From a virus: a DNA stretch of 31,784 bases. The translations under genes were made by a program, and so were the position numbers. The notes below the pieces were generated by a model. It searched no databases. It saw nothing but the letters and a program-made list of their open reading frames with translations, and had not been told where the DNA came from. Where the stretch lies: the UHGV virus genome UHGV-0321443; one strand, written 5' to 3'. Below, piece by piece: positions 1,832 to 20,748 of this stretch (within the stretch, counting starts at the first letter, position 1; each line of letters begins with the position of its first letter).

Positions 1832-1859
1832 CCCGGCGCGGTGGCCGGGTTTATTTATT
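1832..1859. terminator. Bidirectional rho-independent terminator (t-imm-like) closing the cI-side operon
   Basis: Hairpin cccggc-gcggtg-gccggg at 1832..1849, flanked by T-rich runs on both strands (tttatttatt on plus; ttttctttg on minus). Overlaps the stop codon of the 1855..2505 gene. Confidence 0.6.
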
Positions 1860-2505: not shown

Positions 2506-2759
2506 AGCCCATTATCCCTGAGAGCTACCTGTAATGATTTTACTAATGCAACAGCTTGATCCGGGCTCATTGAGACTGACATGTTAGGGGTCAACTCAAC
2601 TTTTACTTGGAAGCTATTCTTTCCTTGCTCATCAGACTGCATGTGATGCTCAAATTCATGGCGGTAAAAAGTAATGATTGTTTCAGCACGATCAGGCGTA
2701 ATAAGAACTGATGTGGCGGTCATGTGCTGAGGTATGATTTTAATAGTGTTATCTGACAT
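2493..2759 (-). CDS. Hypothetical small protein (88 aa; the ORF could extend to 2900 for 135 aa)
   Basis: ATG at 2759 has AAGGA about 5 nt upstream (MSDNTIKIIPQHMTATSV...); upstream in-frame Met codons lack an SD. No recognisable domain. Confidence 0.45.
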   Translation of the reverse strand: MSDNTIKIIPQHMTATSVLITPDRAETIITFYRHEFEHHMQSDEQGKNSFQVKVELTPNMSVSMSPDQAVALVKSLQVALRDNGLWKD

Positions 2760-2951
2760 AAGTATCCTTTTTGTTTCCTTAGTATTTTTTTGCATTGACA
2801 TCAGAAATAGCGAATCCACAAGAGTATGAGTAAAGCTAATCAGTTTAGTGATACGGTGACTATTAAAGTGGTAAACCACATCAAAGCTCGCAGAGTGCAT
2901 ACCAGGCTGTCACACATGACAAAGTAACGAGGATGCCTGATCTCATAGCGC

Positions 2952-3107
2952 TCAAAGAGACATGCCGATAATGGCATTAACCACGCATGACGCCATAAAC
3001 ACGCCGCCAACGATGAAGCTGGCTTGGTTCTTCCTGGTAGCGCCAAGAGTCAACAGAACCACTGAAAGGGCAAAAAAAGGTATCGCGATTATGCTGAACG
3101 TGTTCAT
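2952..3107 (-). CDS. Small hydrophobic protein, 51 aa, two predicted TM helices
   Basis: Hand translation of the minus strand: MNTFSIIAIPFFALSVVLLTLGATRKNQASFIVGGVFMASCVVNAIIGMSL; SD GAGG 5 nt upstream of the ATG; 77 bp downstream of the cI stop on the same strand. Below the ORF-track size cutoff. Confidence 0.4.
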   Translation of the reverse strand: MNTFSIIAIPFFALSVVLLTLGATRKNQASFIVGGVFMASCVVNAIIGMSL

Positions 3108-3184
3108 GTTGACCTCAACTTATTTCGATTCTCCATCACCCTTAATCCGCCGCCCCATGTGTTTGTTGTGATTCGTTGCTGGCC

Positions 3185-3901
<717 letters not shown>

Positions 3902-3908
3902 TTAAATC

Positions 3909-3972
3909 TATCACCGCAAGGGATAAATATCTAACGCCGTGCGTGTTGACTATTTTACCTCTAGCGGTGATA
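3909..3972. promoter_or_regulatory. oR3-oR2-oR1 operator array with overlapping divergent pRM/pR promoters
   Basis: tatcaccgcaagggata (3909..3925), taacgccgtgcgtgttg (3932..3948), tacctctagcggtgata (3956..3972); pR reads TTGACT (3946..3951) - 17 nt - GATAAT (3969..3974) towards cro. Confidence 0.85.
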
Positions 3973-3989
3973 ATGGTTGCATGTACTAA

Positions 3990-4199
<210 letters not shown>

Positions 4200-4237
4200 G
4201 TAACACCGCTATTTTCACAATGGACATTCGTCCTACG

Positions 4238-4252
4238 TCGCTGACAAAGCGA
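4238..4252 (+). promoter_or_regulatory. nutR boxB hairpin (P22-type); possible boxA at 4208..4216
   Basis: tcgcTGACAAAgcga stem-loop with the same GACAAA-type loop as the nutL site at 1527..1541; upstream cgctatttt resembles boxA. Confidence 0.5.
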
Positions 4253-4337
4253 GTCCCAATATATCTGACCAACTAAGGCCATATGCGTTTCCACGCATAC
4301 CTTTCAACTAACTATTCACTATTGGAAATCTTAAGAA

Positions 4338-4634
4338 ATGGAACAAACAAGTTACAGCAAACTATCACAGCGCGACGTTGATCGCGCAGAAACAGATTTA
4401 CTTATCAACCTGTCAACGCTTACCCAGCGCGGTCTGGCAAAGATGATTGGCTGTCATGAATCGAAGATAAGCAGAACGGACTGGAGATTTATTGCTTCGG
4501 TCTTGTGTGCTTTCGGAATGGCATCAGACATCAGTCCGATTAGCAGGGCTTTTAAGTATGCGCTTGATGGACTCACCAATAAAAAACGCCCGGCGGCAAC
4601 CGAGCGTTCTGAACAAATCCAGATGGATTTTTAA
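4338..4634 (+). CDS. cII: CII-like transcriptional activator (mosaic: divergent N-terminus, lambda-like C-terminus)
   Basis: C-terminal TNKKRPAATERSEQIQMDF matches the lambda CII C-terminus from memory; the N-terminal two-thirds differs; located right of cro and nutR. Confidence 0.75.
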   Translation: MEQTSYSKLSQRDVDRAETDLLINLSTLTQRGLAKMIGCHESKISRTDWRFIASVLCAFGMASDISPISRAFKYALDGLTNKKRPAATERSEQIQMDF

Positions 4635-4655
4635 CTGCTTTCTATGGAGTTAATT

Positions 4656-5456
4656 ATGGCAAAAAAACCTACACCAGACCAGGTAAAAAAGATTCGTTCC
4701 GGCATTACCAAGAAAATACGGTTTGAGGTTTTCAAGCGCGATGGCTTCAAATGCCAGTACTGTGGGAGTTCTGCGCCAGACGTCATCCTTCATGTCGACC
4801 ATATCAACCCAGTTAGCAAGGGTGGCGATAACGACATGATGAACCTTATTACTTCTTGCGATAGTTGTAATGGCGGGAAAAGCGACAAACTGCTCAGCGA
4901 TAACTCAATAATGGAAAAGCAAAGGCAGCAACTCCAGGAACTTAATACCAAGCGAGAGCAACTGGAGATGATGATCAAGTGGCGAGATGGTCTTAAGAGC
5001 CTGAAAGACGATGTTGTTGATATTGTCGCTACCAAAATTGACGACTGCATTGCACCATTTACTGTTAATGACAATGGGCGAAAATCTATCAAGAGATGGC
5101 TTCGAATATATAAGCTTGAAGAAATCCTCGATGCGATTGAGATTGCCGCAGATAAAAAACTCACCCAAGAAATAACCCATGAGCTTACTGGTGAATTCTT
5201 TGAGTACATCCCTCGCATAGCAGCGACAAAAAGAAAACCGCCAAAAGAACAAAGGATTCTATACATCAGAGGAATCCTTAAAAACCGCATATATATCAAT
5301 CAAAACCATGTAATGAGTTATCTCAAGGCATGGCTTTCATACGACTTAGATCTCGATGAACTTACTGAGTTTGCGAAAACAGTACCTAACTGGACAACGT
5401 TCAAGGAGTGGGTATCTGAACGCATTCGTGAAGCTCAGGAAGAACTCCCGTACTAA
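4656..5456 (+). CDS. HNH endonuclease-domain protein with an unknown C-terminal domain
   Basis: HNH motif region CQYCG...HVDHINPVSKGGDNDMMNLITSCDSCN; SD GGAG before the ATG at 4656; visibly AT-richer than neighbouring genes. Confidence 0.65.
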   Translation: MAKKPTPDQVKKIRSGITKKIRFEVFKRDGFKCQYCGSSAPDVILHVDHINPVSKGGDNDMMNLITSCDSCNGGKSDKLLSDNSIMEKQRQQLQELNTKREQLEMMIKWRDGLKSLKDDVVDIVATKIDDCIAPFTVNDNGRKSIKRWLRIYKLEEILDAIEIAADKKLTQEITHELTGEFFEYIPRIAATKRKPPKEQRILYIRGILKNRIYINQNHVMSYLKAWLSYDLDLDELTEFAKTVPNWTTFKEWVSERIREAQEELPY

Positions 5457-5467
5457 AGGTGGACAAA

Positions 5468-6334
5468 ATGGCACGTTCAAGAAATATCAAACCAGGCTTT
5501 TTCACCAATGATGAATTAGCTGAGTGTTCTCCATATGCCCGTCTCCTTTTTGCCGGGTTATGGACTATTGCTGACAAAGAAGGGCGGTTGGATGATCGCC
5601 CAAAGAAAATTAAAGCAATGGTACTGCCTTTCGATGATGTGGACTGCAATGATCTGCTTCAGCAGCTTCACAGTCACAAATTCATCAACCGATATCAGGT
5701 AAATGGCGGCTCATATATCCAAATCAATAACTGGAAAAAGCACCAGAACCCTCACTGCAAAGAAGCAGCCAGTGAGATACCAGAACCAGTAGAGAACAAT
5801 AACAGCACCATGCAAGTACAGTGCAAGGACGATAAAGAGGAAGAGAAGGAGGATGCCGAATCACTACAAGTCATTGAAAACAATGGAGCACCAGAAAAGC
5901 ACCATGCAAGTACAGTGCAAGAACCAGTAGAGAACAGTTTAAATCCTGCTGATTCCCTTAACCTGATTCCTGATTCCCTTTCTAACACCCAAGCCGCTGA
6001 CGCGACTTGTGAAGGGGGTGGGGCTGATGTCCATAAAATTTCAAGTCGCTATGCATTCGAAGGAAATATCGTTCGGTTAAACCACAAGGACTACGAAGCA
6101 TGGAAGCGCCTGTATCCGAACATTGACCTGAATTACGAACTGGAAAGGCTGGATATCGAATTTAGCCATGAGAAGCCAAAGAACTGGTTTATCACTGCCA
6201 GCCAGAAACTCAGCTACCAGAACAAGCAGGCGTTATCCAGACCGGTACGCAAGGTTGCTAATGGACTTAAGGCTGAAAACTTTGCCACCAAAGATTACGG
6301 ACAAACTGAAATGCCTTCATGGGCGCAGGAGTGA
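5468..6334 (+). CDS. Replication initiation protein (O-like replisome organiser)
   Basis: N-terminus MARSRNIKPGFFTNDELAECSPYARLLFAGLWTIADKEGRLDDRPKKIKAMVLPFDD resembles phage replication-initiator N-domains; SD AAGGTGG; contains internal direct repeats; followed by the helicase-loader gene. Confidence 0.65.
   Translation: MARSRNIKPGFFTNDELAECSPYARLLFAGLWTIADKEGRLDDRPKKIKAMVLPFDDVDCNDLLQQLHSHKFINRYQVNGGSYIQINNWKKHQNPHCKEAASEIPEPVENNNSTMQVQCKDDKEEEKEDAESLQVIENNGAPEKHHASTVQEPVENSLNPADSLNLIPDSLSNTQAADATCEGGGADVHKISSRYAFEGNIVRLNHKDYEAWKRLYPNIDLNYELERLDIEFSHEKPKNWFITASQKLSYQNKQALSRPVRKVANGLKAENFATKDYGQTEMPSWAQE
5781..5985. repeat. Iteron-like direct repeats inside the O-like gene (candidate replication origin)
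   Basis: gaaccagtagagaaca occurs at about 5785 and 5922; caccatgcaagtacagtgcaag at about 5816 and 5901; tgattcc(c) occurs three times in 5951..5980. Confidence 0.5.
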
Positions 6335-6336
6335 AC

Positions 6337-7182
6337 ATGACGCTGGATGAAAAGATCTCGCAACTGGAGAAAAAACTTGCAGAATTGAGTTCTCCGCCAA
6401 TTGCTATCGAGCATACAGCTGTAGAAATTGGCACTGGCATCTGTGAAAAACATGGTGAGTTTGAGCAGCGTAACCGTTATTCGACAGGGACAATTAAGTT
6501 TGCCTCAAGACCTAGCGAATGCCCGGAATGCATGAGAGATGAGCTTATTCGGCTACAGGCAGAGAAGATTAAAATCGACGAAGAATCACGTAAGCGCAAT
6601 GTCGAGTTTCTGTTGAATAATCTTGATATTCCTGAACGATTCAAGGGTTGCACACTACAGAACTACGAGCCAGTCAACGACGATGCAAAGAGAGTGCTCA
6701 GGGTGTGTCAGGCATACGCCAGCAAATGGCCTGAGAGGTTACAGAAAGGCGGTGGGCTGGTTATGTGTGGAAAGCCTGGTACTGGAAAGAATCATCTTGC
6801 ACTGGCTATCGCCCGGCACGCAATTACGGAACATCAAAGCTCAGCTATTTTCACAACGGCGCTGAAAATTGCCAGAGAATATAAATCAACATGGTCGAAA
6901 AACTCCACCCGCACAGAGGATGAAGTGATCCGACAGTTCACTAAACCTGACCTGCTAATTATCGATGAGGTTGGTGTGCAGTTTGGAAGCGAGGCGGAAA
7001 AGATGATCATGTTCGAAATCATCAACACCCGCTACGAGCGCATGAAGCCAACAATCCTGATTAGCAACCAGAGCAAAGATGAACTTTCGGCATTCATTGG
7101 TGAGCGTGTTATTGACAGGATGAATGATGGCGGCGGATGCACCCTTGCGTTTACATGGGATAGTTACAGGAGCAGATCGTGA
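6337..7182 (+). CDS. DnaC/IstB-like AAA+ ATPase (replicative helicase loader)
   Basis: Walker A GKPGTGKNHLALAIA and Walker B LLIIDEVG; start immediately follows the O-like stop, with SD AGGAG. Confidence 0.8.
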   Translation: MTLDEKISQLEKKLAELSSPPIAIEHTAVEIGTGICEKHGEFEQRNRYSTGTIKFASRPSECPECMRDELIRLQAEKIKIDEESRKRNVEFLLNNLDIPERFKGCTLQNYEPVNDDAKRVLRVCQAYASKWPERLQKGGGLVMCGKPGTGKNHLALAIARHAITEHQSSAIFTTALKIAREYKSTWSKNSTRTEDEVIRQFTKPDLLIIDEVGVQFGSEAEKMIMFEIINTRYERMKPTILISNQSKDELSAFIGERVIDRMNDGGGCTLAFTWDSYRSRS

Positions 7183-7469
7183 CTGGAAAAGAAATCATCC
7201 TGGAATATCTGAAAACTCATGAACAATTCTCCCCACATGAATTAGCTCTGATCACCGGAATACCAAATAACAGAATCGCTCAAGCAGCAAGGCATATGGT
7301 GAAACAAGGGCATTTGAGTGTTGTTGAGCGTAAGTGGAAGACGGTTATTTATGCAAAACGCAAAGTGAAGAAGGAGCCAATTAAAAGAAATCCAGATGGT
7401 ACGGGATGGGGATGTGCAAATCCAATGACGGCGTTTATTAATAGGGCGCTTATGGAGGTAAGGCAATGA
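7179..7469 (+). CDS. Hypothetical small protein (possible winged-helix DNA-binding)
   Basis: Six-frame ORF; GTG start overlapping the DnaC-like stop (GTGA). Not otherwise recognised. Confidence 0.4.
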   Translation: MTGKEIILEYLKTHEQFSPHELALITGIPNNRIAQAARHMVKQGHLSVVERKWKTVIYAKRKVKKEPIKRNPDGTGWGCANPMTAFINRALMEVRQ

Positions 7470-7547
7470 CCATCTACATCACTGAGCTAATAGCAGGGTT
7501 ATCGTTACTAATGGTTCTTACTGTATATATTATTAAGTATATTCTTT

Positions 7548-8159
7548 ATGCGAATAAAAAAACCAATTGATCACGATGAGCTTCTGTCAACATTATCATA
7601 TGACTCAGAAACAGGAATATTTAAATGGCTAAAAACAAATTCAGTAGTAAGAGTAAAAGGTAGTATTGCTGGAGGTGTTAGTGGTGGTTATATATGCATT
7701 AGCATAAATAATGTTTTGTATTATGCGCATAGGCTTGCTTGGTTCTATGTATACAAAAAATGGCCTCCTAAGTTTATTGATCATGTAAATGGGAACAGAC
7801 TTGACAATAGGATTTCAAATCTAAGACTGGCAACAGAGGAGCAGAATGCAAGAAACATTGTAGGTAATAGGTTAAACACATCCGGTGCGATTGGAGTGTC
7901 TTGGGATAAGACAACTGGCAGGTGGAAGTCTTATGTTGGTTATAAAAATAAGACAATATCGTTAGGGTATTTCGATAGCAAAGAAGATGCAGCATTCATA
8001 GCAGCACTAGCAAGAAAGAAACTATATGGAACTTATGCGAGTAAAGCACTTAATTGCGAGCATGAGCTTTTATCTCAATTTAATAATGATGAGGATAAAC
8101 TTGCGGAATATCTTAAGGAAAAATCTAAAAGGACTCGAAAGCGTGTTAAAAAAAGATAA
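7548..8159 (+). CDS. HNH homing-endonuclease-like protein with AP2-like DNA-binding domain
   Basis: HRLAWFYVYKKWPPKFIDHVNGNRLDNRISNLRLATEEQNARN is a typical HNH_3 signature; gene is conspicuously AT-rich; followed by a strong terminator. Confidence 0.65.
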   Translation: MRIKKPIDHDELLSTLSYDSETGIFKWLKTNSVVRVKGSIAGGVSGGYICISINNVLYYAHRLAWFYVYKKWPPKFIDHVNGNRLDNRISNLRLATEEQNARNIVGNRLNTSGAIGVSWDKTTGRWKSYVGYKNKTISLGYFDSKEDAAFIAALARKKLYGTYASKALNCEHELLSQFNNDEDKLAEYLKEKSKRTRKRVKKR

Positions 8160-8191
8160 AGGCCTGCTGGTAATCGCAGGCCTTTTTATTT
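8160..8191 (+). terminator. Rho-independent terminator
   Basis: ggcctgc-tggtaatc-gcaggcc hairpin followed by tttttattt. Confidence 0.7.
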
Positions 8192-8219
8192 GGGGGAGAG
8201 TAATTGGAGGATTTAAGAA

Positions 8220-8435
8220 ATGAGTACGATAGCTGAGCTTGTCAGGGCTAATTTTCGTGAAGAGTTGGCGCGTTGGTATCGGTATCGTTCATCGTCCAGT
8301 TTGCCGCTTGATGAGTTGTATGAGCATTCACCTGCCGCACGACGCTATCCGCGTGACCGTGTTCTTCGGCGGTTGTTCAGACTCAACAATGAGTTTCAGC
8401 GCAACAGAATAATCCGGAGTCTGGATTTAAAGTGA
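8220..8435 (+). CDS. Hypothetical small nin-region protein
   Basis: Six-frame ORF only. Confidence 0.3.
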   Translation: MSTIAELVRANFREELARWYRYRSSSSLPLDELYEHSPAARRYPRDRVLRRLFRLNNEFQRNRIIRSLDLK

Positions 8436-8445
8436 AGGAGTGAGC

Positions 8446-8628
8446 ATGAGCGAGCAAATATTCAGAGAGATTAAGCCACGGTTTTATCGCAAGGTAAGGG
8501 TAGTTTATCAGGACGAAAACAAGACCTGTGCATACGCCATTCATAATGGTCGGTGGTCAGTGTTCGACACCAAAAACTTCGAGAAGAACTTCGAGAGGAT
8601 TAAGGGTGATGAGGAAACTAACATTTGA
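8446..8628 (+). CDS. Hypothetical small nin-region protein
   Basis: AAGGAG SD 5 nt before the ATG at 8446. Confidence 0.35.
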   Translation: MSEQIFREIKPRFYRKVRVVYQDENKTCAYAIHNGRWSVFDTKNFEKNFERIKGDEETNI

Positions 8629-9049
8629 ACTAAGAAGCCCCATCCATCAGCAGAACGCCATTCAAGCTATCCAGCAAATCCTTCCAGACCCAACCAAACC
8701 AATCGTAGTAAGCATTCAGGAACGCAACCGCAGCTTAGACCAGAATCGAAAGCTTTGGGCTTGCCTTGGTGACGTCTCTCGTCAGGTTGAATGGCATGGG
8801 CGCTGGCTGGATGCAGAAAGCTGGAAGTGTGTGTTTACCGCAGCATTAAAGCAGCAGGACGTTGTTCCTAACCTTGCCGGGAATGGCTTTGTGGTAATAG
8901 GCCAGTCAACCAGCAGGATGCGTGTAAGCGAATTTGCGGAGCTATTAGAGCTTATACAGGCATTCGGTACAGAGCGTGGCGTTAAGTGGTCAGACGAAGC
9001 GCGACTGGCTCTCGAATGGAAAGCGCGATGGGGAGACAGGGCGGCATGA
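8609..9049 (+). CDS. ninB: NinB-like recombination protein
   Basis: Translation [57 protein letters not shown]... matches lambda NinB from memory. Confidence 0.8.
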
Positions 9050-9240
9050 GGCGACAGCGACGAAGTTTCACCGACATCATCTGCGAAAACTGCAAATACC
9101 TTCCAACGAAACGCTCCAGAAATAAACGCAAGCCAATCCCCAAAGAATCTGACGTAAAAACCTTCAATTACACGGCTCACCTGTGGGATATCCGGTGGCT
9201 AAGACATCGTGCGAGGAATACAAGGGGATTGACGCGATGA
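9046..9240 (+). CDS. ninE: NinE-like protein
   Basis: [52 protein letters not shown] matches lambda NinE from memory; ATGA overlap with the ninB stop. Confidence 0.75.
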
Positions 9241-9319
9241 TTTATCCGGGGCTATATTCCTCACACGCCAGCAAAATCTGGCGTCGGGATTGGCGTCCCG
9301 GATAGAAACCGCGACAGAG

Positions 9320-9342
9320 ACACGCCGCGAGCGTGTTTTTTA
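9320..9342 (+). terminator. Rho-independent terminator in the nin region
   Basis: acacgc-cgcga-gcgtgt hairpin followed by tttttt. Confidence 0.55.
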
Positions 9343-9502
9343 TTGTCGTATGCACGCGCACATCTGAATTATGGTGGGCTGTGTGGGGGCGGAGAGATCC
9401 GCGCCGGTCGGTTTCCCGGTTACGCCAACCCTGCACAGTTCACCGCCAGACGATTGGCGTCGTCGGTGGTGAGTCATTTAGAAACCACCGGAGAGCGTCA
9501 CC

Positions 9503-10180
9503 ATGACAACTCAAATTTCTGTCGAAACTCTTTCCCCGATCACCCACAACCAGATCCCCGTTATTACAACTGAACTTCTTGCGCAGTTATACGGAACAAA
9601 AATCAAAAACATTTCGGATAACTTTCTTAACAACACGACGCGATTCGTGGTAGGGAAGCATTACTTTAAAATTGAAAGGAACGAATTACGCGAGTTTAAG
9701 AACAGACCCGAAACAATCGGGTTAGTTGGTAAAAATGCCCGCTCCCTCATCCTCTGGACAGAACGCGGAGCAGCCCGTCACGCCAAAATGCTCGAAACCG
9801 ATCAGGCGTGGGAAGTGTTCGAAAAACTGGAAGACTGCTATTTCAGCCAGTGCGAGAAAAATACTGGCAAACAAGAGAAGAAGCCCAACGGGCTTTCCGC
9901 AAAAGAAACAGACAGCCTTGTTTGGCTGTGGGATTATGCCAACCGCTCACAGGCATTGTTCCGTGAGTTGTATCCCGCATTAAAACTGATTCAGTCTGGC
10001 TATTCCGGCATATGCCACGACTACGGCTATGAGTTCTCGTATATCATCGGGAGGGCGAGGGGCGTTTTAATTAATCACACGCGGGATATAGATATTTATG
10101 AGCCTGACGGGCCGACGAACCTTCTGGCATGGGAAAGGCTTAAGAACAAAGAGTTGCCGCCTTCACTGCATCGCTACTGA
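9503..10180 (+). CDS. Antirepressor-like protein (ORF6N/Bro-N-type N-domain fused to a P22 Ant-type C-terminal domain)
   Basis: C-terminal roughly 100 aa are near-identical to the C-terminus of the Ant-like protein at 30744..31664; N-terminal domain resembles ORF6N-type antirepressor domains. Confidence 0.55.
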
Positions 10181-10222
10181 CAATTGACAACTTAACAAAC
10201 CCAGCTTCGGCTGGGTTTTTTA
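9868..10222 (+). repeat. Direct repeat copy A (antirepressor 3' coding region plus terminator)
   Basis: Aligned by eye with 31352..31705: about 170 bp near-identical, the rest roughly 80% identical; equal length and same orientation. Confidence 0.8.
10200..10222 (+). terminator. Rho-independent terminator
   Basis: cccagc-ttcg-gctggg hairpin followed by tttttt. Confidence 0.7.
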
Positions 10223-10254
10223 TTGCTGAATTTTCAATATGAGAGGACATGACA

Positions 10255-10977
10255 ATGAATGAGCTGATAAATAGCAGCATCATCAAAATGACAAGCATTG
10301 AAATCGCTGAGTTGGTGGGAAGCCAACACGGTAATGTCAGAATATCAATAGAACGTCTGGCAAAGCGTGGGGTGATTCAACTTCCTCCAATGCAAAAAGT
10401 TGAAAATAAACAAACAATTAGCCCTAACAAATTCACAAGCGTGTATATATTCGAAGGCGAACAAGGTAAGCGAGACAGCATTATTGTCGTCGCTCAGTTG
10501 TCGCCGGAATTCACCGCTCGTCTTGTTGACCGTTGGCGAGAACTCGAAGGGGCAACCGCGAAAATACCACAAACCTTTTCTGAGGCATTGCGCCTTGCGG
10601 CCGACCTTGAAGACCAGAAGGCTGAACTGGAGAAACAGCTTGCTCTCGCAGCACCTAAAGTTGAGTTTGCCGATCGCGTTGGCGAGGCCAGCGGAATTTT
10701 GATTGGAAACTTTGCAAAGGTTGTTGGAATTGGTCCAAACAAACTGTTTGCGTGGATGCGCGATCACAAAATCCTTATTGCTTCAGGTTCCCGGCGCAAT
10801 GTGCCAATGCAGGAATATATGGATCGCGGCTATTTCACAGTGAAAGAAACAGCGGTCAACACAAATCACGGAATACAGATATCGTTCACCACAAAAATCA
10901 CCGGGCGTGGTCAACAGTGGCTGACCAGAAAGCTGCTCGATAACGGAATGCTGAAAGTAACAGGGGAGGCTGCTTAA
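10255..10977 (+). CDS. Rha-family regulatory protein / antirepressor (Rha N-domain with KilAC-type C-domain)
   Basis: N-terminus IKMTSIEIAELVGSQHGNVRISIERL resembles Rha; C-terminal region resembles antirepressor C-domains. ATG at 10255 has better SD spacing (GAGAGGA) than 10249. Confidence 0.55.
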   Translation: MNELINSSIIKMTSIEIAELVGSQHGNVRISIERLAKRGVIQLPPMQKVENKQTISPNKFTSVYIFEGEQGKRDSIIVVAQLSPEFTARLVDRWRELEGATAKIPQTFSEALRLAADLEDQKAELEKQLALAAPKVEFADRVGEASGILIGNFAKVVGIGPNKLFAWMRDHKILIASGSRRNVPMQEYMDRGYFTVKETAVNTNHGIQISFTTKITGRGQQWLTRKLLDNGMLKVTGEAA

Positions 10978-11267
10978 TGGCTAACCTACGCAAAGAAGCG
11001 CGCGGCAGAGAATGTCAGGTACGTATTTACGGCGTATGCAATGGCAATCCTGAAACTACAGTTCTGGCACATTACCGGATGGCTGGAATTTGCGGAACGG
11101 GAATGAAACCTGACGACCTGATCGGCGCATGGGCTTGTAGTGACTGCCACGCGGAGATCGACCGACGCACAAGGATTCTCGACAACAAAGACGCCAGACT
11201 TTACCACCTCGAAGGCGTGATCAGGACGCAGGCGATACTGCTGAAGGAGGGGAAGATTAAGTCATGA
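10977..11267 (+). CDS. DUF1364-like (YbcO-like) zinc-binding protein
   Basis: 96 aa with Cys/His-rich motifs (C..C....H....C..C..CH); sits immediately upstream of rusA as YbcO does in DLP12-type prophages. Confidence 0.5.
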   Translation: MANLRKEARGRECQVRIYGVCNGNPETTVLAHYRMAGICGTGMKPDDLIGAWACSDCHAEIDRRTRILDNKDARLYHLEGVIRTQAILLKEGKIKS

Positions 11268-11626
11268 ACGAATATCAGTTTGTGCTTCCATACCCGCCGT
11301 CGGTGAACACCTACTGGCGAAGACGGGGAAGCCAATACTACATCAGCGATAAAGGCCAGAAATACCGAAAAGACGTTCAGCAAATAATCCGCCAACTCAA
11401 GTTAGACATTTTCACCAAATCAAGACTCCGCATCAAAGTCATCGCAGACGTTCCAGACTCCCGCCGCCGCGACCTCGACAACATCCTGAAAGGTTTCCTC
11501 GACTCCCTTATCCACGCCGGATTTGCGGAAGACGACGAGCAATTCGATGACATTCGCGTAATTCGTGGTGTGAAAGTACCAGGCGGACGGCTTGGAATAA
11601 AAATCACCGAACTGGAGAACGTATGA
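11264..11626 (+). CDS. rusA: RusA-family Holliday junction resolvase
   Basis: 120 aa; YPPSVNTYWR...RRRDLDNILKGFLDSL...GGRLGIKITE matches the RusA pattern. Confidence 0.85.
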   Translation: MNEYQFVLPYPPSVNTYWRRRGSQYYISDKGQKYRKDVQQIIRQLKLDIFTKSRLRIKVIADVPDSRRRDLDNILKGFLDSLIHAGFAEDDEQFDDIRVIRGVKVPGGRLGIKITELENV

Positions 11627-11766
11627 ACAAAGCATTCGAACGATATATGCGCCAGCGTTATGGCAATCGCTATGACCTGACGCGAGATGTTGAAGGTTTC
11701 TACTGTAGTGAAATTGTGAAACGAATGTTTGAAGTTTGGTGTCATTGCAAAGGATGGGAGGTCTGA
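11623..11766 (+). CDS. Hypothetical small protein (47 aa) between rusA and the Q-like gene
   Basis: ATGA overlap with the rusA stop and TGATG overlap with the next gene; hand-translated MNKAFERYMRQRYGNRYDL... Position analogous to small genes upstream of Q in DLP12-like prophages. Confidence 0.3.
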   Translation: MNKAFERYMRQRYGNRYDLTRDVEGFYCSEIVKRMFEVWCHCKGWEV

Positions 11767-12380
11767 TGCGGCTAACTCCAGTATTCAGCATGGTTAACTT
11801 CATTAATGACGCGCACTTTCGCCGCGTATGGAGACACCCGAAGAAAACCATCAACTCTAGCCAGAAAGCATGGGTTCATTACATGTTACAGGTATGGGGC
11901 AAGGTTAATACCGGAGATTGCTCTCCAGGTGGTGCAATTAACGTTATCGGTCGTCTGATGATTCGCAGTCAGTGGAGCGATGACAAGGCTAAGCAGATAG
12001 AGTCTGTCGTCATGCGCCTGTACGAAGAAGATGGGCTGCGCGGAGATGAGCTATACAAGAAAGCTCGCGAACTGGTCATTCCTCAATCATCGTTTAGCCA
12101 CATCATCACTCTCGCCAAAGAATCAGATGATGCGGCTTTCGTTGAACGTGTGATGGTTAAAACGTTTCACCGTGAAAGCCCTGTCCGCGATGTAGCTATT
12201 AAGCGATATTGCAATCGCAATTGCACGCAAGATATAGCCAGGATTATTTCTTATATAACAGGTGCTGATATTCAGTATTGTCGTAAGCGAGTGGTGTGGT
12301 GTGAGAAAGTGCTGGAGTCAGAAATGTTTTATGCAATGAAACGAGAATTGGAGAAAGAATTTCCATTAATAGCGGCCTGA
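11766..12380 (+). CDS. Putative late-gene antiterminator (Q-like), assigned by position
   Basis: Last gene before the late intergenic region and lysis cassette; SD GGAGG; Cys-rich C-terminal region. Family not confidently recognised. Confidence 0.45.
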   Translation: MRLTPVFSMVNFINDAHFRRVWRHPKKTINSSQKAWVHYMLQVWGKVNTGDCSPGGAINVIGRLMIRSQWSDDKAKQIESVVMRLYEEDGLRGDELYKKARELVIPQSSFSHIITLAKESDDAAFVERVMVKTFHRESPVRDVAIKRYCNRNCTQDIARIISYITGADIQYCRKRVVWCEKVLESEMFYAMKRELEKEFPLIAA

Positions 12381-12538
12381 ACTGAAATAATTTTGTAAAT
12401 GCGTTGCTTCCGAGAAATGAAAGTGGTATTTTTTGTATATGCTCGGAGCAAAAGCGAACTGAGCAGCGAAATTGAAATCCTGATTTCCCCGGTTGCCGAT
12501 AATATTTAGGGTCGACATACTGGCTAGATTAGGTAAGA

Positions 12539-12566
12539 GCCTCGGCATAAACGTCGGGGCTTTTTT
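12539..12566 (+). terminator. Candidate tR'-like terminator of a short late leader transcript
   Basis: gcctcggc-ataaac-gtcggggc hairpin (two G-U pairs) followed by tttttt, about 160 bp downstream of the Q-like stop. Confidence 0.4.
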
Positions 12567-12857
12567 GTTTGCACAACAGGTAAGTGCATTTGTAGAGTTC
12601 GACTCTCTACCGTGGGCTTTTTCCCGCGATGCGAGCCATAAGTGCTCTTTCCGTTGTGCTGAATTAAGCGAATGCCGGAAGCAGAACCGGATCACCAAAT
12701 GCGTGCAGGCGTCATCGCCGCCCAGCAACAGCACAACCCAAACTGAGCCGTAGCCACTGGCTATCCTGAATTCATCAGTGATAGTTACGCTGCGGCCTTC
12801 TTTTTTCCCCTTCCCAATATAAGAACTACGCAATCCGTTACTGGCGGAGGCGTTGCT

Positions 12858-13073
12858 ATGAAATCAATGGACAAAATCTCAACTGGCATTGCCTACGGAA
12901 CATCCGCTGGTAGTGCGGGATACTGGTTTTTGCAGTGGTTGGATCAGGTCAGTCCATCACAGTGGGCTGCGATTGGTGTACTGGGGAGTCTGGTTCTGGG
13001 CTTCCTGACATATCTGACTAACCTGTATTTCAAAATCAGAGAGGACCGTCGTAAGGCTGCACGGGGAGAGTAA
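12858..13073 (+). CDS. S: Pinholin, phage 21 S21 type (class II holin with dual-start motif)
   Basis: 71 aa; [32 protein letters not shown]... matches phage 21 S21 as I recall it; Met1/Met4 dual starts at 12858 and 12867; SD GGAGG. Confidence 0.9.
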
Positions 13074-13077
13074 TTCA

Positions 13078-13428
13078 ATGACTCAAAACTATGAACTGAT
13101 TGTGAAAGGGATCCGCAATTTTGAGAATAAAGTTACGGTAACTTTAGCGTTACGGGACAAAAAACGCTTTGACGGTGAAATTTTTGACCTGGACATCTCG
13201 CTGGACCGTGTTGAAGGTGCCGCGCTGGGGTTTTATGAGGCAGCAGCCAGAAGGAGCATCAGACAGGTCTTCCTGGATGTTGCTGCCGGGTTATGTGAAG
13301 GGGATGAGCAGTCGCCGGAAAAGCGCCCCGTAATTTTAGAGGCGCAGAATGTGTGGATAACCTACAAAGTAAAGCTACCAGGAAGAATTACTGGTTCTCT
13401 GAAGACTCCTCCGGAATCACAACCTTAA
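13078..13428 (+). CDS. Hypothetical protein (116 aa) lying between holin and endolysin
   Basis: Six-frame ORF starting 5 nt after the holin stop; no recognisable motif; possibly related to DUF1327-type genes seen at this position in some E. coli prophages. Confidence 0.45.
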   Translation: MTQNYELIVKGIRNFENKVTVTLALRDKKRFDGEIFDLDISLDRVEGAALGFYEAAARRSIRQVFLDVAAGLCEGDEQSPEKRPVILEAQNVWITYKVKLPGRITGSLKTPPESQP

Positions 13429-13491
13429 GTCACTGACCGGAACAGATAAACCTGTCCGTGGGCAGAAACCGATAAATCCTGATAAATATCC

Positions 13492-14025
13492 ATGAACGCA
13501 AAAATCAGATACGGCCTGTCGGCTGCCGTTCTGGCACTGATTGCCGTCGGTGCGCCCGCGCCTGATATTCTCGACCAGTTTCTGGATGAAAAAGAAGGTA
13601 ACCACACAACGGCATACCGCGATGGTTCCGGCATCTGGACCATCTGTCGGGGTGCCACGATGGTGGATGGAAAACCCGTTTTTCCCGGTATGAAACTGTC
13701 GAAGGAAAAATGCGACCAGGTCAACGCCATTGAGCGTGATAAGGCGCTGGCATGGGTGGAGCGCAATATTAAAGTACCACTGACCGAACCACAAAAAGCG
13801 GGTATCGCGTCATTTTGTCCCTATAACATTGGCCCCGGTAAGTGTTTTCCATCGACGTTTTATAAGCGGCTGAATGCCGGTGATCGTAAGGGGGCATGCG
13901 AAGCGATTCGCTGGTGGATTAAGGATGGTGGGCGCGATTGCCGCATACGTTCAAATAACTGCTATGGGCAAGTTATTCGTCGTGACCAGGAAAACGCATT
14001 AGCCTGTTGGGGGATAGAGCAGTGA
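13492..14025 (+). CDS. R: SAR endolysin (T4-lysozyme-like muramidase with N-terminal signal-anchor-release domain)
   Basis: N-terminal hydrophobic, Gly/Ala-rich segment ([17 protein letters not shown]) followed by a lysozyme-like domain; position between holin and Rz. Confidence 0.8.
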
Positions 14026-14459
14026 GCAGAGTCGCCGCGATTATTTATGCTCTGGTTATCTGCACCATCGTCTGCCTGTCATGGGCTGTTAATCATTACC
14101 GTGATAACGCCATCGCCTACAAAGACCAGCGCGATAAAGCCACATCTATCATCTCTGATATGCAGAAGCGTCAACGTGATGTAGCTGAACTCGACGCCAG
14201 ATACACAAAGGAGCTTGCTGATGCTAACGCGACTATCGAAAGTCTCCGTGCTGATGTTTCTGCTGGGCGTAAGCGCCTGCAAGTCGCCGCCACCTGTGCA
14301 AAGTCAACGACCGGAGCCAGCGGCATGGGCAATGGAGAAAGCCCAAGACTTACAGCAGATGCTGAACTCAATTATTACCGTCTCCGAAGTGGAATCGACA
14401 GGATAACCGCGCAGGTTAACTACCTGCAGGAATACATCAGGACGCAATGCCTGAAATAA
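14022..14459 (+). CDS. Rz: Rz i-spanin
   Basis: [38 protein letters not shown]... closely resembles lambda Rz; GTG start overlaps the endolysin stop (GTGA). Confidence 0.85.
14215..14406 (+). CDS. Rz1: Rz1 o-spanin (lipoprotein), embedded in the +1 frame of Rz
   Basis: Signal peptide with lipobox (LLGVSAC) followed by a Pro-rich segment ([13 protein letters not shown]); wholly inside Rz as in lambda. Confidence 0.7.
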
Positions 14460-14491
14460 TTTTTTTGCAAATCACACAGTCCATTTAATGA

Positions 14492-14513
14492 GCCTCGCGA
14501 TGCGGGGCTTTTT
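14492..14513 (+). terminator. Rho-independent terminator after the lysis cassette
   Basis: gcctcgc-gat-gcggggc hairpin followed by ttttt. Confidence 0.55.
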
Positions 14514-14520
14514 GCAATAA

Positions 14521-14545
14521 ATGCGTACCGCAACGCATGTTTTTT
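14521..14545 (+). terminator. Second tandem rho-independent terminator
   Basis: atgcgt-accgca-acgcat hairpin followed by gtttttt. Confidence 0.55.
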
Positions 14546-14660
14546 ACACCGAACCTGCCCCTTTGGAATGGGCCTTTGAGGATACCAGTTAGTGCTGGCG
14601 AGCCTCGGTGGGCTGGTTTCCTGTGCGGCAAAGGTTCATTTCAAAGAGTAGGTACACGCT

Positions 14661-15158
14661 ATGAAATCATTAACCCTCTTCAATCAACCAATTCGTATCG
14701 GTGAAGATGGCATGATCTGCCTCACTGATATGTGGAAAGCCAGTGGTAAAAGTGAATCTGAATCGCCTTACCACTACCTGCGAAACAAGCAGACCAAAGA
14801 GTTCTTAGCCGAGCTGGAGAAAAACCACGAATCTGTGGTTTTTACTGAGCGCGGTGTACACGGTGGAACATATGGCGGGAAGTTTGTTGCTTATGATTAT
14901 GCAGCATGGCTAAACCCCGGATTTAAATATGCAGCCTATAAAGTCCTGGATGACTACTTCACCGGAGAACTTCAGCATCGCAACAGCTTAAGTGCGCAGC
15001 TCAATATGAAGTGTCATGAGTTTGATCAGAAAAAAGATATGGCGAGCTTCTGTGGACAAGGGCTGGCGGCATGGCGCTATACGAAGCCAGTGTTGGTCGC
15101 TGAGATTAACTCCCTGGCTAACCAGCTGCAGATAACGATCCCCGGGCTTCCGGGATGA
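14661..15158 (+). CDS. KilA-N domain protein
   Basis: N-terminal region resembles KilA-N DNA-binding domains; lies between the lysis-cassette terminators and cos, so probably a moron with its own promoter. Confidence 0.5.
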   Translation: MKSLTLFNQPIRIGEDGMICLTDMWKASGKSESESPYHYLRNKQTKEFLAELEKNHESVVFTERGVHGGTYGGKFVAYDYAAWLNPGFKYAAYKVLDDYFTGELQHRNSLSAQLNMKCHEFDQKKDMASFCGQGLAAWRYTKPVLVAEINSLANQLQITIPGLPG

Positions 15159-15412
15159 GTGATCGTGTCATTGAATGCGCTTCCAGAGCGGGGCGCGACT
15201 TCTCAGAGTTCATGAAAGGCGAGAAGGGCATGATGGAAGCATTGGCCTCGGTGGATGAGTTTGGCGAGCAGCTGCGCCTCAACGGCTGTGTCAATCATCA
15301 CTTTGTTAGCTACATGATGCGGAACTCGATCATGCAGGCATTCATGGACATGGCAAAAGCCGAGAGGAAAGAAGAGCGCCGGCGTAAGCGAGCGGAAGCA
15401 AAAGCGAAATAG
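15155..15412 (+). CDS. Hypothetical protein (85 aa), translationally coupled to the KilA-N gene
   Basis: ATGA overlap with the upstream stop; highly charged C-terminus (RKEERRRKRAEAKAK). Confidence 0.4.
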   Translation: MSDRVIECASRAGRDFSEFMKGEKGMMEALASVDEFGEQLRLNGCVNHHFVSYMMRNSIMQAFMDMAKAERKEERRRKRAEAKAK

Positions 15413-16235
15413 CCATTACAAAGCCCATCTACGGGTGGGTTTGATAATGGCTTATACCCTGCACGGGATAACTTAACTGATATCCCTTTTAACGGATAAA
15501 CGGAGCCAACAATGGCAGAGAATGTCGGCATTATGGCAGTGAAATTTGGATAAATCGGGGATTAGAAAGATAGAGGCGAGCCGGTCAGGTAGAAATGAAT
15601 CAGGCTCAAAGTGAAGCGGAAAAGGTCTGTGGCACAAACTGATGCTGCCATAATTACAGCCTGATGACTTGTGGAATGAAACATGTTGAACCTCCTTAAT
15701 TGATGTGATTCGAGTGAGGAAGGCATTCTGTCCTTCTATAGTGTCCAGTAAATCAAACAGGAAGCTTGTCTCACGTGTGAGACAAGCCTCTCCATTAGCG
15801 AGTTGTATTGATTACAACTCTTCAAAGAGTTCATTACTGGGTAGATGAAAATAGTTTCACGACGAATGGAGGAGACTATGTCGGTGGCTTCTTCATTGGA
15901 GTACATATGCTCCCTCGAACCTCAAAAGCATGCCGAGTTCGCGGCTGCCGCCATACCACCACAGATCCGTCAGGCTATTGCAAAAGCCACAAAAGCGAAG
16001 GCTGGAAGCAATACAAGCCGGGCCAGTCCTGTCATCAGCGCGGTTATGGTTCGCGAGGTTGTCCCTCATGCTCGCCAGTCCTGTGCGGGGGTGGAAGAAA
16101 CAGGACACTCACACAGATTCTTGTGGGTCGATGCTATTCCTTTCTGGATTATCCCGATGCCATTCATGCAAGGGCTGTATAAGACGTTCGTCATGGCTGT
16201 CAGGCTGACGGGTCCTCCCGGTGGGGTGGCCTGCC

Positions 16236-16255
16236 ACGGGGCGGGAGCGTCGCGG
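16236..16255. promoter_or_regulatory. Candidate cosN-like cohesive-end site, with cosB-like repeats extending to about 16420
   Basis: acggggcgggagcgtcgcgg resembles the lambda cosN context (acggggcggcgacctcgcgg, from memory), differing in the central 6 nt; downstream tttttgcat and gttcg(a/c)ac repeats precede the Nu1-like gene. Confidence 0.4.
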
Positions 16256-16424
16256 AAAAAGGCTAGTTTTTGCATTTTTATCGGCCACCATCATCTTTGC
16301 ATCTTATTGATTATTAATGGTTATTTGTTTTTTGCATGTCGAATTGAGTGTTTTTTGTTCGACATCGAACGCGTTTTCTTAAAGTTGTTCGCACGATGCA
16401 TGTTTAAAGCTCTCCGGAGGAAAT

Positions 16425-16916
16425 ATGGATCATGAGTTGAAAAACCTGGTGCTGAATATTAATCAACTGGCGGCTTTATCTGGTCTGCACCGCCAGACTG
16501 TCGTGGCAAGACTGAAAAACATTCGTCCCGCTGGTGGACATGACAAACTCAAGCTATACCGGTTGACCGATATTCTGACTGAATTTATGGGGTTACCACC
16601 GCCGGTTGCTGAGGGCGAAATGGATCCACATGAACGCAAAGCCTGGTATCAGTCTGAACGTGAGCGTCTTAAGTTCGAACAGGAAACGGCACAACTCATT
16701 CCGGCCAGTGATGTCAGACGGGAGTTTGCCATCTGGGCAAAAGCGGTCGTGCAGGTGCTGGAGACATTACCGGATATTCTGGAACGTGACTGCGGTCTGC
16801 AGCCTGCCGCTGTGAGCCGTGTTCAGTCCATTATTGATGATCTGCGCGATCAGATAGCCCTGCGGGTGACCGAAGCAGGTGCGGATGATGAGGAGGAATT
16901 ACAGCAGGAGGAGTAA
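16425..16916 (+). CDS. Terminase small subunit (Nu1-like)
   Basis: N-terminal helix-turn-helix (NINQLAALSGLHRQTVVARLKN) analogous to Nu1; SD GGAGGA; directly upstream of the large subunit with TAATG overlap. Confidence 0.7.
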   Translation: MDHELKNLVLNINQLAALSGLHRQTVVARLKNIRPAGGHDKLKLYRLTDILTEFMGLPPPVAEGEMDPHERKAWYQSERERLKFEQETAQLIPASDVRREFAIWAKAVVQVLETLPDILERDCGLQPAAVSRVQSIIDDLRDQIALRVTEAGADDEEELQQEE

Positions 16917-19018
16917 TGCTGAATCAGGAAACCGCAAAGGCAGCACGAACCGATTCAGGTTATATCCTTCGCGCACCGAGACGAATGCGGGTTGCTGATG
17001 CCGTTGCTCAGTATATGCGGGTGCCCATGGGGGCAGGGAACTCAGTCCCGTGGGATCCGCTGGTGGCACCGTATGTTATTGAGCCGATGAACTGCCTGGC
17101 CTCGCGTGAATACGACGCAGTGATATTTGTTGGCCCGGCACGAACCGGCAAGACTATCGGCCTGATTGACGGCTGGGTGATTTACAACGTGATTTGCGAT
17201 CCTGCTGATATGCTGATCATTCAGATGACGGAGGAAAAAGCCCGCGAACACTCCAAAAAACGACTTGCCAGAACGTTTCGCGTCAGCCCGGAAGTGGTCA
17301 GTCGCCTGAGTCCGAACAAAAATGACAACAACGTTTATGACAGAACATTCCTTGCTGGTAACTACCTGAAAATCGGCTGGCCGTCAGTCAATATCATGTC
17401 CTCATCAGATTATAAATGCGTCGCGCTGACGGATTATGACCGTTTTCCGGAAGATATTGATGGCGAGGGGGATGCTTTCTCTCTTGCCTCAAAACGTACC
17501 ACCACATTTATGTCCAGTGGTATGACGCTGGTGGAGAGTTCCCCCGGCAGGGATGTGAAGGATGTGAAATGGCGACGGACTTCACCGCATGAGGCTCCAC
17601 CAACCACGGGGATCCTGTCGCTCTATAACCGTGGTGATCGCCGTCGCTGGTACTGGCCCTGTCCACACTGTGGTGAGTATTTTCAGCCCTGCGGCGATGT
17701 GGTTGCTGGTTTCCGTGATATTGCCGATCCCGTGCTGGCAAGTGAGGCGGCTTATATTCAGTGTCCTTCCTGTTCAGGACGGATTATGCCTGAACAAAAA
17801 CGTGAGCTGAACGGACGTGGGGTCTGGTTGCGGGATGGTGAATCCATCAATGCGGATGGCAGTCGTTATGGTGATCCCCGACGCTCACGTATTGCGTCAT
17901 TCTGGATGGAGGGTCCGGCAGCTGCTTACCAGACACTCTCGCAACTCGTTTACAAACTGCTTACTGCAGAACAGGAATACGAGACAACCGGAAGTGAAGA
18001 AACACTCAAGACGGTTATCAATACCGACTGGGGATTACCTTATCTTCCCCGCGCCAGCATGGAGCAACGAAAAAGTGAACTGCTTGAGCAGCGGGCAGAG
18101 CCAGTTCCTTCCCGCAGTGTGCCGGATGGCGTTAATTTCCTTGTGGCGACAGTGGATGTGCAGGCGGGACGTCATCGCCGTTTTGTGGTTCAGGTAACGG
18201 GCTATGGCAGCCGTGGCGAACGCTGGATTATTGATCGTTACAACATCACGCAGTCATTGCGCGGTGACAGTGACGGGGAGAGCCAGCGAATTGATCCGGC
18301 CAGCTATCCGGAAGACTGGGATGTCCTGCTGACGGATGTTTTTCATAAAAGCTGGCCGCTGGCCTCCGATCCTTCTCAACAAATGCGACTGATGGCAATG
18401 GCGGTGGACTCCGGCGGTGAAGACGGGGTCACTGATAATGCCTATAAATTCTGGCGTCGTTGCCGTCGTGATGGCCTTGGTAAACGTATTTACCTGTTTA
18501 AGGGCGACAGCATCCGGCGCGCAAAACTGATCACCCGTACATTCCCTGATAACACCGGACGAACGGGCCGACGGGCGCAGGCCGCAGGTGATGTGCCGCT
18601 CTGGCTTCTTCAGACGGATGCACTGAAAGACCGGGTGAATAACGCGTTATGGCGTGACTCGCCAGGTCCCGGCTATGTGCATTTCCCTGACTGGCTGGGG
18701 AGCTGGTTTTACGACGAACTGACGTATGAAGAGCGGAGCAGTGACGGGAAATGGAGTAAGCCGGGTCGCGGTGCCAACGAAGCTTTTGACCTGATGGTGT
18801 ATGCCGAGGCTCTGGTCATTCTGCATGGATACGAAAAGATCCGCTGGCCGGATGCACCGGAGTGGGCGAGCCGGGAAACCTGGCTGGAGTGTGTCCAGGA
18901 CAGTACCGAACCGTCATCCTCACCGGAACCGGTATCCACGCCTGTTAAAAAACAAAAACGGAAGAAAACAGTAACTGACGATGTTAACCCCTGGCTGACT
19001 TCCGGAGGATGGTTATGA
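16916..19018 (+). CDS. Terminase large subunit (lambda gpA family)
   Basis: 700 aa; Walker A GPARTGKT; CPHCGE motif as in lambda gpA. Confidence 0.9.
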   Translation: MLNQETAKAARTDSGYILRAPRRMRVADAVAQYMRVPMGAGNSVPWDPLVAPYVIEPMNCLASREYDAVIFVGPARTGKTIGLIDGWVIYNVICDPADMLIIQMTEEKAREHSKKRLARTFRVSPEVVSRLSPNKNDNNVYDRTFLAGNYLKIGWPSVNIMSSSDYKCVALTDYDRFPEDIDGEGDAFSLASKRTTTFMSSGMTLVESSPGRDVKDVKWRRTSPHEAPPTTGILSLYNRGDRRRWYWPCPHCGEYFQPCGDVVAGFRDIADPVLASEAAYIQCPSCSGRIMPEQKRELNGRGVWLRDGESINADGSRYGDPRRSRIASFWMEGPAAAYQTLSQLVYKLLTAEQEYETTGSEETLKTVINTDWGLPYLPRASMEQRKSELLEQRAEPVPSRSVPDGVNFLVATVDVQAGRHRRFVVQVTGYGSRGERWIIDRYNITQSLRGDSDGESQRIDPASYPEDWDVLLTDVFHKSWPLASDPSQQMRLMAMAVDSGGEDGVTDNAYKFWRRCRRDGLGKRIYLFKGDSIRRAKLITRTFPDNTGRTGRRAQAAGDVPLWLLQTDALKDRVNNALWRDSPGPGYVHFPDWLGSWFYDELTYEERSSDGKWSKPGRGANEAFDLMVYAEALVILHGYEKIRWPDAPEWASRETWLECVQDSTEPSSSPEPVSTPVKKQKRKKTVTDDVNPWLTSGGWL

Positions 19019-20735: not shown

Positions 20736-20748
20736 TTCCTGGTTCAGG

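Follow-up and report, generated by a model that had tools for sequence, protein, structure and literature searches.

The 31,784-nucleotide DNA of the virus genome UHGV-0321443 (called the window below, always at its full length) carries two antirepressor genes with the same 3' end, gene A (9503..10180) in the nin region of a lambda-like Escherichia coli prophage and gene B (30744..31664) between its tail genes L and K. The shared end is a direct repeat, copy A at 9865..10222 and copy B at 31349..31706 (both on the + strand), and we consider it highly probable that this repeat is the common 3' module of two antirepressor cassettes and that its near-identical core is a tract of nin-type sequence in copy B. 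The module is made up of the sequence that codes for a 104-residue P22AR_C domain and, behind it, an intrinsic terminator; copy A ends an ORF6N + P22AR_C gene that stands behind C4/isrK-type RNA elements and a leader open reading frame (ORF), and copy B ends a P22-type ant gene in an immI-like cassette inserted between L and K. In copy B, ~130-150 bp of nin-type DNA would have replaced tail-type sequence by homeologous recombination or gene conversion, either within this prophage or between co-resident prophages, and the segment would have served repeatedly as right-hand homology, both for the conversion of patches and for moves of the cassette from the tail site to the nin region.

The repeat and its two alleles

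The two copies align without gaps at a constant offset of 21,484 bp and in direct orientation, and they are identical at 316 of 358 positions (88.3%). Identity outside the repeat is only 21-24%, the random value (100 bp on the 5' side and 78 bp on the 3' side), so both edges are sharp. An earlier note on this DNA, made by eye from the sequence, had described a same-orientation repeat of about 355 bp in which about 170 bp are near-identical and the rest is roughly 80% identical. The pairwise alignment bears this out, and the identity is not far below that judged by eye; the interval was right except that its left edge lies 3 bp further out than first given. Positions 9865-10026 match copy B at 157 of 162 sites (96.9%), the slightly longer stretch 9865-10040 at 170 of 176, and the remaining coding part (10027-10180) at 128 of 154 (83%). 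After the stop codon the copies differ at 10 of the 19 bp of a spacer and then agree at 22 of the 23 bp of the terminator segment (10200-10222). The longest perfect run is 92 bp (9923-10014), and no third copy is present within the window.

Copy A is made up of the last 316 bp of the nin-region antirepressor gene, the 19-bp spacer and the terminator, and copy B likewise of the 316 bp that end the P22-type ant at the tail site, with its own spacer and terminator. The products of genes A and B share 92 of 104 identical residues (BLASTP E = 1e-67), and their likeness is confined to these C-terminal 104 residues; this and the domain matches given below show that the repeat comprises the segment coding for P22AR_C with its stop codon, then a short spacer, then an intrinsic terminator. 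In both copies the hairpin reads CCCAGC(TTCG or CTCG)GCTGGG, with a T-run behind it. The terminator after gene A (10197..10225, + strand) has the stem AAACCCAGC / GCTGGGTTT, a TTCG loop and the T-run (-15.1 kcal/mol, z=-3.7), and that after gene B (31682..31708, + strand) is the same hairpin with one loop change (-17.6 kcal/mol, z=-3.5); folding predicts that the hairpins proper occupy 10197-10218 and 31682-31701, each with its T-run beyond. The gene B terminator lies directly 5' of the ribosome-binding site and start of tail gene K. Rfam found no RNA element embedded in copy A, and a scan of 29900-31784 at E<=1 gave two chance-level matches, neither of them inside the repeat.

Why is the 5' half of the repeat so much more alike than the rest? 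We aligned 11 alleles as follows: three from the nin site (the window, N32 and 90-3040), six from the tail site (the window, Res13, PK8241, STEC799, ARS-C301 and O157 4276) and two from genomes that carry the P22-type ant in the nin region (RM10410 and DEC5E). Two classes ~17% apart at the DNA level emerge: a "nin type", which is uniform and includes copy A, and a "tail type". Copy B belongs to both: it is a tail-type gene with a nin-type tract of ~130-150 bp. The tract occupies 31349..31495 (+ strand; counterpart 9865-10011 in copy A), with its left limit between 31349 and 31367 and its right limit between 31495 and 31499. Over these 147 positions copies A and B differ at 3, whereas the unmixed tail-site alleles (Res13, PK8241 and O157 4276) differ from copy A at 23-26 and from copy B at 24-27. 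In the rest of the coding sequence the relation is turned around, with 28 differences in 169 positions between A and B and 8 in 169 between B and the O157 tail allele (Fisher p = 6e-6). Among the 66 informative sites, 22 of the first 23 are of nin type and 36 of the other 43 of tail type; the maximum chi-square for copy B is 38.3 (permutation p<=0.0005). A second mini-patch may be present in copy B, where 3-4 nin-like sites lie at 31637-31652. It is the replacement of tail-type by nin-type sequence in copy B that gives the repeat its 97-98% identical core.

Several points weigh against this reading of copy B. The tract differs from copy A at 31369, 31397 and 31406, and two of these three sites match Sakai-type and RM10410-type nin alleles, from which the tract differs at only 1-2 positions, so the donor was probably not the present copy A, or else mutations followed the exchange. 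The direction of transfer, from nin type to tail type, is suggested by allele frequencies, its sole basis (the nin type is uniform and tail-site alleles that carry the tract are a minority); the allele survey comprises 11 sequences and one ranked search, and the complete genomes alone contain about 480 P22_AR_N-type genes and about 400 nin-type loci; and copy B could possibly be a chimeric assembly, a point taken up below.

Recombination in the segment and other explanations

Exchanges of the same kind are found in other genomes. The permutation test is equally significant (p<=0.0005) for STEC799, ARS-C301 and DEC5E, with different break points each time: in window coordinates the nin-type tract is 31366-31512 in STEC799 and 31412-31512 in ARS-C301, the crossover of DEC5E is near 31652, and that of RM10410 is at the 5' edge of the repeat. 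Further comparable mosaics are present in OkiPb strains.

Whole cassettes have moved as well. Three genomes, RM10410, DEC5E and STEC346, have a P22-type ant directly 5' of roi in the nin region, and these relocated cassettes are joined on their right side inside the repeat. A simple reciprocal single crossover was considered for them and rejected: nin genes and not L lie upstream in all three, which makes them cassette insertions or replacements. The RM10410 cassette belongs to an Stx1a prophage, where it occupies the nin region, and the entire repeat there is of nin type (99.4% identical to copy A). In DEC5E and STEC346 a truncated ORF6N pseudogene keeps nucleotides 1-81 of the repeat and is followed by a complete cassette and then by roi. 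Over 1,655 bp, from 2 nt after the L stop codon to the ant terminator, the cassette of DEC5E matches that of the O157 tail site at 98.7% identity. Its left joint falls in GGATTATGCC(A/C)ACCG, which is common to the P22AR_C coding sequence (9931-9945) and the sequence after the L stop (29991-30005); the 10-mer GGATTATGCC itself occurs at 29991-30000, 9931-9940 and 31415-31424, and it is the exact joint between the truncated ORF6N-P22AR_C gene and the relocated cassette in both DEC5E and STEC346. This joint may be a microhomology-mediated junction or may be the remnant of a cassette that once lay inside a P22AR_C gene. At the right joint of DEC5E, close to the stop codon, tail-type sequence gives way to nin type. 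Together these joints bear the mark of a tail-site cassette that was copied into the nin gene, by microhomology on the left and by the repeat on the right; the reverse direction, from nin site to tail site, is possible for the DEC5E cassette.

The earlier note had taken the repeat as a mark of recent domain shuffling. Two antirepressors with unrelated N-termini do share their 3' end, but the sharing itself is not recent, since the same segment ends the ant genes of P22-like Salmonella phages, terminator included, and of more than 140 Stx-phage records; only the tract is recent. Its suggestion that the repeat is a substrate for recombination holds in that conversion patches and the relocation of whole cassettes are seen in nature, and fails in that the particular deletion it predicted is not.

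That deletion is the alternative that survives best, although we regard it as unlikely to be what the repeat chiefly represents. The repeat would then be mainly a substrate for RecA- or Red-type crossing-over, with a 21.5-kb loss that leaves a defective prophage. Direct orientation, 88% overall identity and the 92-bp perfect run all suit this, as does the fact that recombination within the segment has happened in nature. A perfect run of this length exceeds the minimal homology for recombination in Escherichia coli. A crossover of this kind would cost the prophage 21,484 bp, with the following contents: roi, a RusA-like gene (named by synteny with N32 only), a Q-like gene (PHROG 753), the holin and lysozyme genes, the small (DUF1441) and large terminase, portal, ClpP-capsid fusion, tape measure and L genes, and finally the cassette regulators and the N-terminal part of ant B. 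The earlier note had listed Q, the lysis genes, cos and all head and tail genes as lost. The Q-like, lysis and head genes are indeed inside the interval, and cos presumably lies just upstream of the terminase genes and would go with them. For the tail genes "all" is wrong: K, with its start at 31719, lies beyond copy B and is spared, and the I, J and fibre genes, which come after K in the N32 prophage, are probably outside the deleted interval too. The deletion product would restore an ORF6N-P22AR_C gene followed by K. We searched for this junction with a query of 465 bp of the ORF6N part, the repeat and ~530 bp of K, demanding at least 80% coverage, and found it in 0 of 5,426 complete E. coli genomes (the best matches covered the repeat and K only). 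The earlier note had proposed a survey of relatives for the two-copy arrangement, and the viable Stx2c phage 2851 has it and maintains it stably. The length of the repeat would suffice for a crossover now and then, and nothing indicates that such deletions persist; a rare somatic deletion between the copies is possible.

Could the mosaic copy B be an assembly artefact, in which reads of another nin-type gene were merged into the tail-site gene? The exact copy B allele is absent from the same 5,426 complete genomes (best match 97.8%), and the tract is nearer to the Sakai-type nin allele than to copy A, which fits reads from another prophage. Comparable mosaics with other end points nevertheless occur in finished genomes (STEC799, ARS-C301 and the OkiPb strains), the tract contains a private substitution at 31397, and more changes private to copy B lie outside the tract. 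We therefore think an artefact very improbable. This particular mosaic allele is new, but it is a detail.

A last alternative needs no recombination at all and ascribes the near-identical 5' half to a stronger constraint on protein or nucleotide sequence. Over the linker and tract, most of the 477 complete genomes with a P22_AR_N-type gene are 86-90% identical to copy B, and values above 90% are confined to about the top 5% of the ranking; Ant of the P22-like phage SE1 also differs at many tract sites. The tract is thus not a generally conserved stretch. As for the domain itself, P22AR_C has no sequence relatives in the PDB (only chance-level matches to syncytin heptads, E about 0.006-0.1). 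An AlphaFold2 model from a shallow alignment predicts three helices with moderate confidence (pLDDT 78), and a Foldseek search of the PDB with this model gave nothing significant (best E=0.75). Although the tract would encode the long first helix of this predicted domain and only one of its three differing codons is non-synonymous, constraint is hardly credible as the source of the core and was rejected on the site counts within the tract and the 477-genome ranking, and the other mosaics end elsewhere and Rfam has no match inside the repeat.

The two cassettes and their surroundings

Gene A (9503..10180, + strand, 225 residues) encodes an ORF6N domain at residues 12-96 (Pfam PF10543, E=2.3e-20) and a P22AR_C domain at residues 125-197 (PF10548, E=3.6e-24), two domains of the Bro-N network in one protein, and over its full length it matches PHROG 377, "anti-repressor Ant" (E=4.5e-83). 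Its site in the nin region, with ninB/ninE on one side and a Roi-like gene on the other, is the usual one for ant/antB in Stx-type lambdoid phages, and by domains and position gene A is identifiable as that gene. The 358 bp of copy A recur at 100% identity in E. coli N32 and in PA28, P27 and others, and at 99.4% in VT2-Sakai and in the antB genes of Nil2 and 2851; 141 phage records match it at 99% or more. Its right neighbour, the roi-like gene (10249..10977, + strand), has a Rha-like N-terminus and a KilAC/ANT domain (Pfam PF03374, E=5.8e-33), and its equivalent in phage 2851 is labelled roi.

The control region of gene A is dense with RNA elements (9252..9450, + strand): a c4-a1b1 target at 9252-9304 (RF03163, 50.8 bits, gathering score 46.7), isrK at 9265-9341 (RF01394, 78 bits, gathering score 50) and a C4 antisense RNA at 9367-9450 (RF01695, 64.2 bits, gathering score 45), all three above their gathering scores. 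They are followed by a leader ORF of 57 residues that starts at a GTG (9333..9506, + strand; PHROG 20442, E=1.5e-40) and whose stop overlaps the gene A start codon at 9503 (ATGA), an arrangement that suggests translational coupling of the two. The whole of 9252-9506 looks like an RNA switch of the P1 immI or Gifsy-1 IsrK type controlling gene A.

Gene B (30744..31664, + strand) encodes 306 residues with a P22_AR_N domain (PF10547, E=1e-44) and a P22AR_C domain (PF10548, E=2.2e-24). Its start is most likely the ATG at 30744 and not the GTG at 30690 of the mechanical ORF, in line with the annotation of the Res13 locus, which is the closest relative (97% identical). The protein is 56% identical to Ant of the P22-like phage SE1 over its full length (306 and 300 residues) and 55.7% identical to that of P22 itself at 100% coverage, and by this comparison it is a full-length homologue of P22 Ant.

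Gene B belongs to a cassette of ~1.7 kb between the tail genes L and K. L (29291..29989, + strand; Pfam Phage_tail_L, E=1.1e-98) is its left neighbour, and the left end of the cassette (29990..30015, + strand), just after the L stop codon, reads TGGATTATGCC, followed by the hairpin CCCACCATCAGGTGGG and a T-run. Next comes a divergent Arc/Mnt-like ribbon-helix-helix regulator (30006..30380, - strand; Pfam Arc PF03869, E=2.7e-7, and Arc-like families of PHROG), whose relatives carry the label "Arc family DNA-binding protein". A small Arc-like ORF (30498..30671, + strand) stands directly 5' of ant B and is co-oriented with it; it matches PHROG 228, "Arc-like repressor" (E=5.5e-6), has no Pfam match, and has counterparts labelled Arc family in DEC5E, STEC799 and O157. 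Promoter-like sites at 30418-30465 are generic, and their number is not above that of a shuffled control. Tail gene K, labelled C40 family peptidase in relatives, is cut by the end of the window (31719..31784, + strand). Its protein begins MLYSNILAHARRC here and MTETESAILAHARRC in the cassette-free N32; the cassette replaces the first ~seven codons of K, and therefore supplies its own ribosome-binding site and first codons for this gene. The proteins of genes A and B are presumably both active as antirepressors. A cI-like repressor gene with helix-turn-helix and Peptidase_S24 domains is at 3185-3898 (- strand).

The window and the N32 prophage are 99.6-99.7% identical over 9038-12590 and 15684-29989. 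This likeness stops exactly at 29989, the L stop codon, and in N32 K begins 5 nt after L. Since N32 thus lacks the cassette and has L and K adjacent, the cassette is a presence/absence polymorphism on a near-identical backbone. The main late-region difference from N32 is in the lysis region, with 94.5% identity over 12732-14138 and no match at ~14140-15400; relative to N32 a different lysis or accessory module has been exchanged within 12590-15684. Positions 1390-9037, the immunity and replication region (the cI-like repressor, cro/cII and replication genes), are largely unrelated to N32 except for short matches at 4192-4635 and 7465-8186, and the window prophage combines another immunity/replication module with the same structural backbone.

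Three further observations concern other parts of the window. An Rfam match to Lambda_thermo (cIII thermoregulator) at 26-84 (- strand, 88.5 bits) places the start of the window in the cIII/N early-left region of a lambda-like prophage. Two direct repeats of 47 nt (5784-5830 and 5878-5924; 83% identical, 94 bp apart) lie within the ORF 5459-6334 in the replication region and may be origin iterons within an O-like gene. A single long ORF, 20488-22707, joins the Pfam domains CLP_protease and Phage_capsid_4, and is labelled prohead protease/major capsid fusion in N32.

Known systems and meaning

Much of this has been seen before. The Stx2c phage 2851 (FM180578.1) has, like the window, antB in the nin region followed by roi and a P22-type ant, labelled "antirepressor-like protein", between L and a K-like tail assembly gene, and the same 358-bp segment ends both genes, its antB copy being 99.4% identical to copy A. 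Unlike those of the window, the two copies are only ~82% identical (copy A compared with the tail copy of 2851), are ~27 kb apart and include no nin-type tract, and the head and tail backbone is different; it is because of the tract that the copies in the window reach 88%.

The tail-site cassette resembles the P22 immI region (mnt, arc, ant, terminator, gene 9) in its 56% identical Ant homologue, divergent ribbon-helix-helix gene, small Arc-like gene before ant, terminator hairpin, and place in the late region with a tail gene directly downstream. In SE1 an Arc-family gene, a small repressor gene, ant and the tailspike gene likewise follow one another, and ant there has the same 3' segment and hairpin; the cassette is thus the homologue of P22 immI in an equivalent position. 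It differs from immI of P22 in its neighbours, which are sieA and gene 9 there and L and K here, in a lambda-like siphovirus-type prophage, and its Mnt-like protein, of 124 residues, has an extra C-terminal part. P22 Ant binds the c2 repressor and that of lambda, cI, and inactivates both (literature cited in PMC3064807).

The Ant proteins of the Stx phages phi24B, VT2-Sakai and 933W-type have the ORF6N + P22AR_C composition of gene A, and phi24B Ant matches P22 Ant at 82% identity over its last 104 residues (Fogg et al. 2011, PMC3064807). When phi24B ant is deleted, the late promoter reaches only ~27-31% of its wild-type activity after induction (PMC3064807). Unlike the Stx phages, the window prophage has no stx gene within its 31.8 kb. 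The RNA elements and the short leader ORF before gene A have parallels in isrK-orf45-anrP of Gifsy-1 and in immI of P1/P7 (c4 RNA, icd, ant), a likeness that concerns the gene A control region only and not the repeat. In P1, immI is laid out as c4 RNA, icd and ant. IsrK of Gifsy-1 acts by way of orf45, which lies upstream of anrP, to activate anrP translation (PMC4825925).

Genes A, B and the roi-like gene all combine Pfam domains of the Bro-N network, whose Bro/Ant domains and their swapping are the subject of an account that cites Iyer et al. 2002 (PMC10111431). Other combinations exist: Stx phages have P22_AR_N matches without a co-linear P22AR_C match. A protein search with the 104-residue domain returned almost only short or partial proteins and added one combination, KilA-N + P22AR_C (P0022); a cross-species scan with it (one genome per species) found only two Pectobacterium loci, at 53% identity. 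The swapping literature is at the protein level, whereas the present case shows the joints in DNA, with crossovers in the shared domain and terminator and a 10-bp microhomology.

In its ~17%-diverged exchange, short patches and replacement of modules, the window resembles the mosaicism by homeologous recombination of Martinsohn, Radman and Petit 2008 and De Paepe et al. 2014. Lambda Red recombines genes that are 22% diverged efficiently and has been proposed as a creator of lambdoid mosaicism (PMC2327257). We infer that phage or host recombinases acting on diverged DNA made the exchange in copy B; the recombinase-related genes identified in the window are only ninB (by Pfam) and the RusA-like gene.

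Does the module do more than provide homology? P22AR_C and its terminator might be a maintained "portable joint" for swapping antirepressor modules between the nin and tail sites, one that also couples the two Ant proteins, though we think this quite improbable. If it were so, a sensor and control module of the C4-RNA-controlled ORF6N type could be swapped for one of the Mnt/Arc-controlled P22 type, the two Ants might associate through their near-identical helical C-domains and so couple two induction circuits, and conversion between the copies would be favoured, as it keeps the C-domains compatible.

The architecture in published phages, the shared 104-residue end, Bro/Ant swapping and homeologous recombination are already known, and current understanding is unchanged by what is an ordinary, already described feature of such phages. 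For annotation, short-read assemblies are likely to be mis-assembled or to contain chimeric alleles at the repeat, and the label "Ant" covers two different genes. The window is nonetheless a small worked example of how a lambdoid mosaic originates, in which a domain and its terminator make one joint and a 10-bp microhomology the other, and in which conversion patches of ~100-150 bp homogenise paralogous segments. One prophage holds two antirepressor modules with two control logics, antisense RNA and ribbon-helix-helix repressors, and this bears on induction and cross-talk in pathogenic E. coli.

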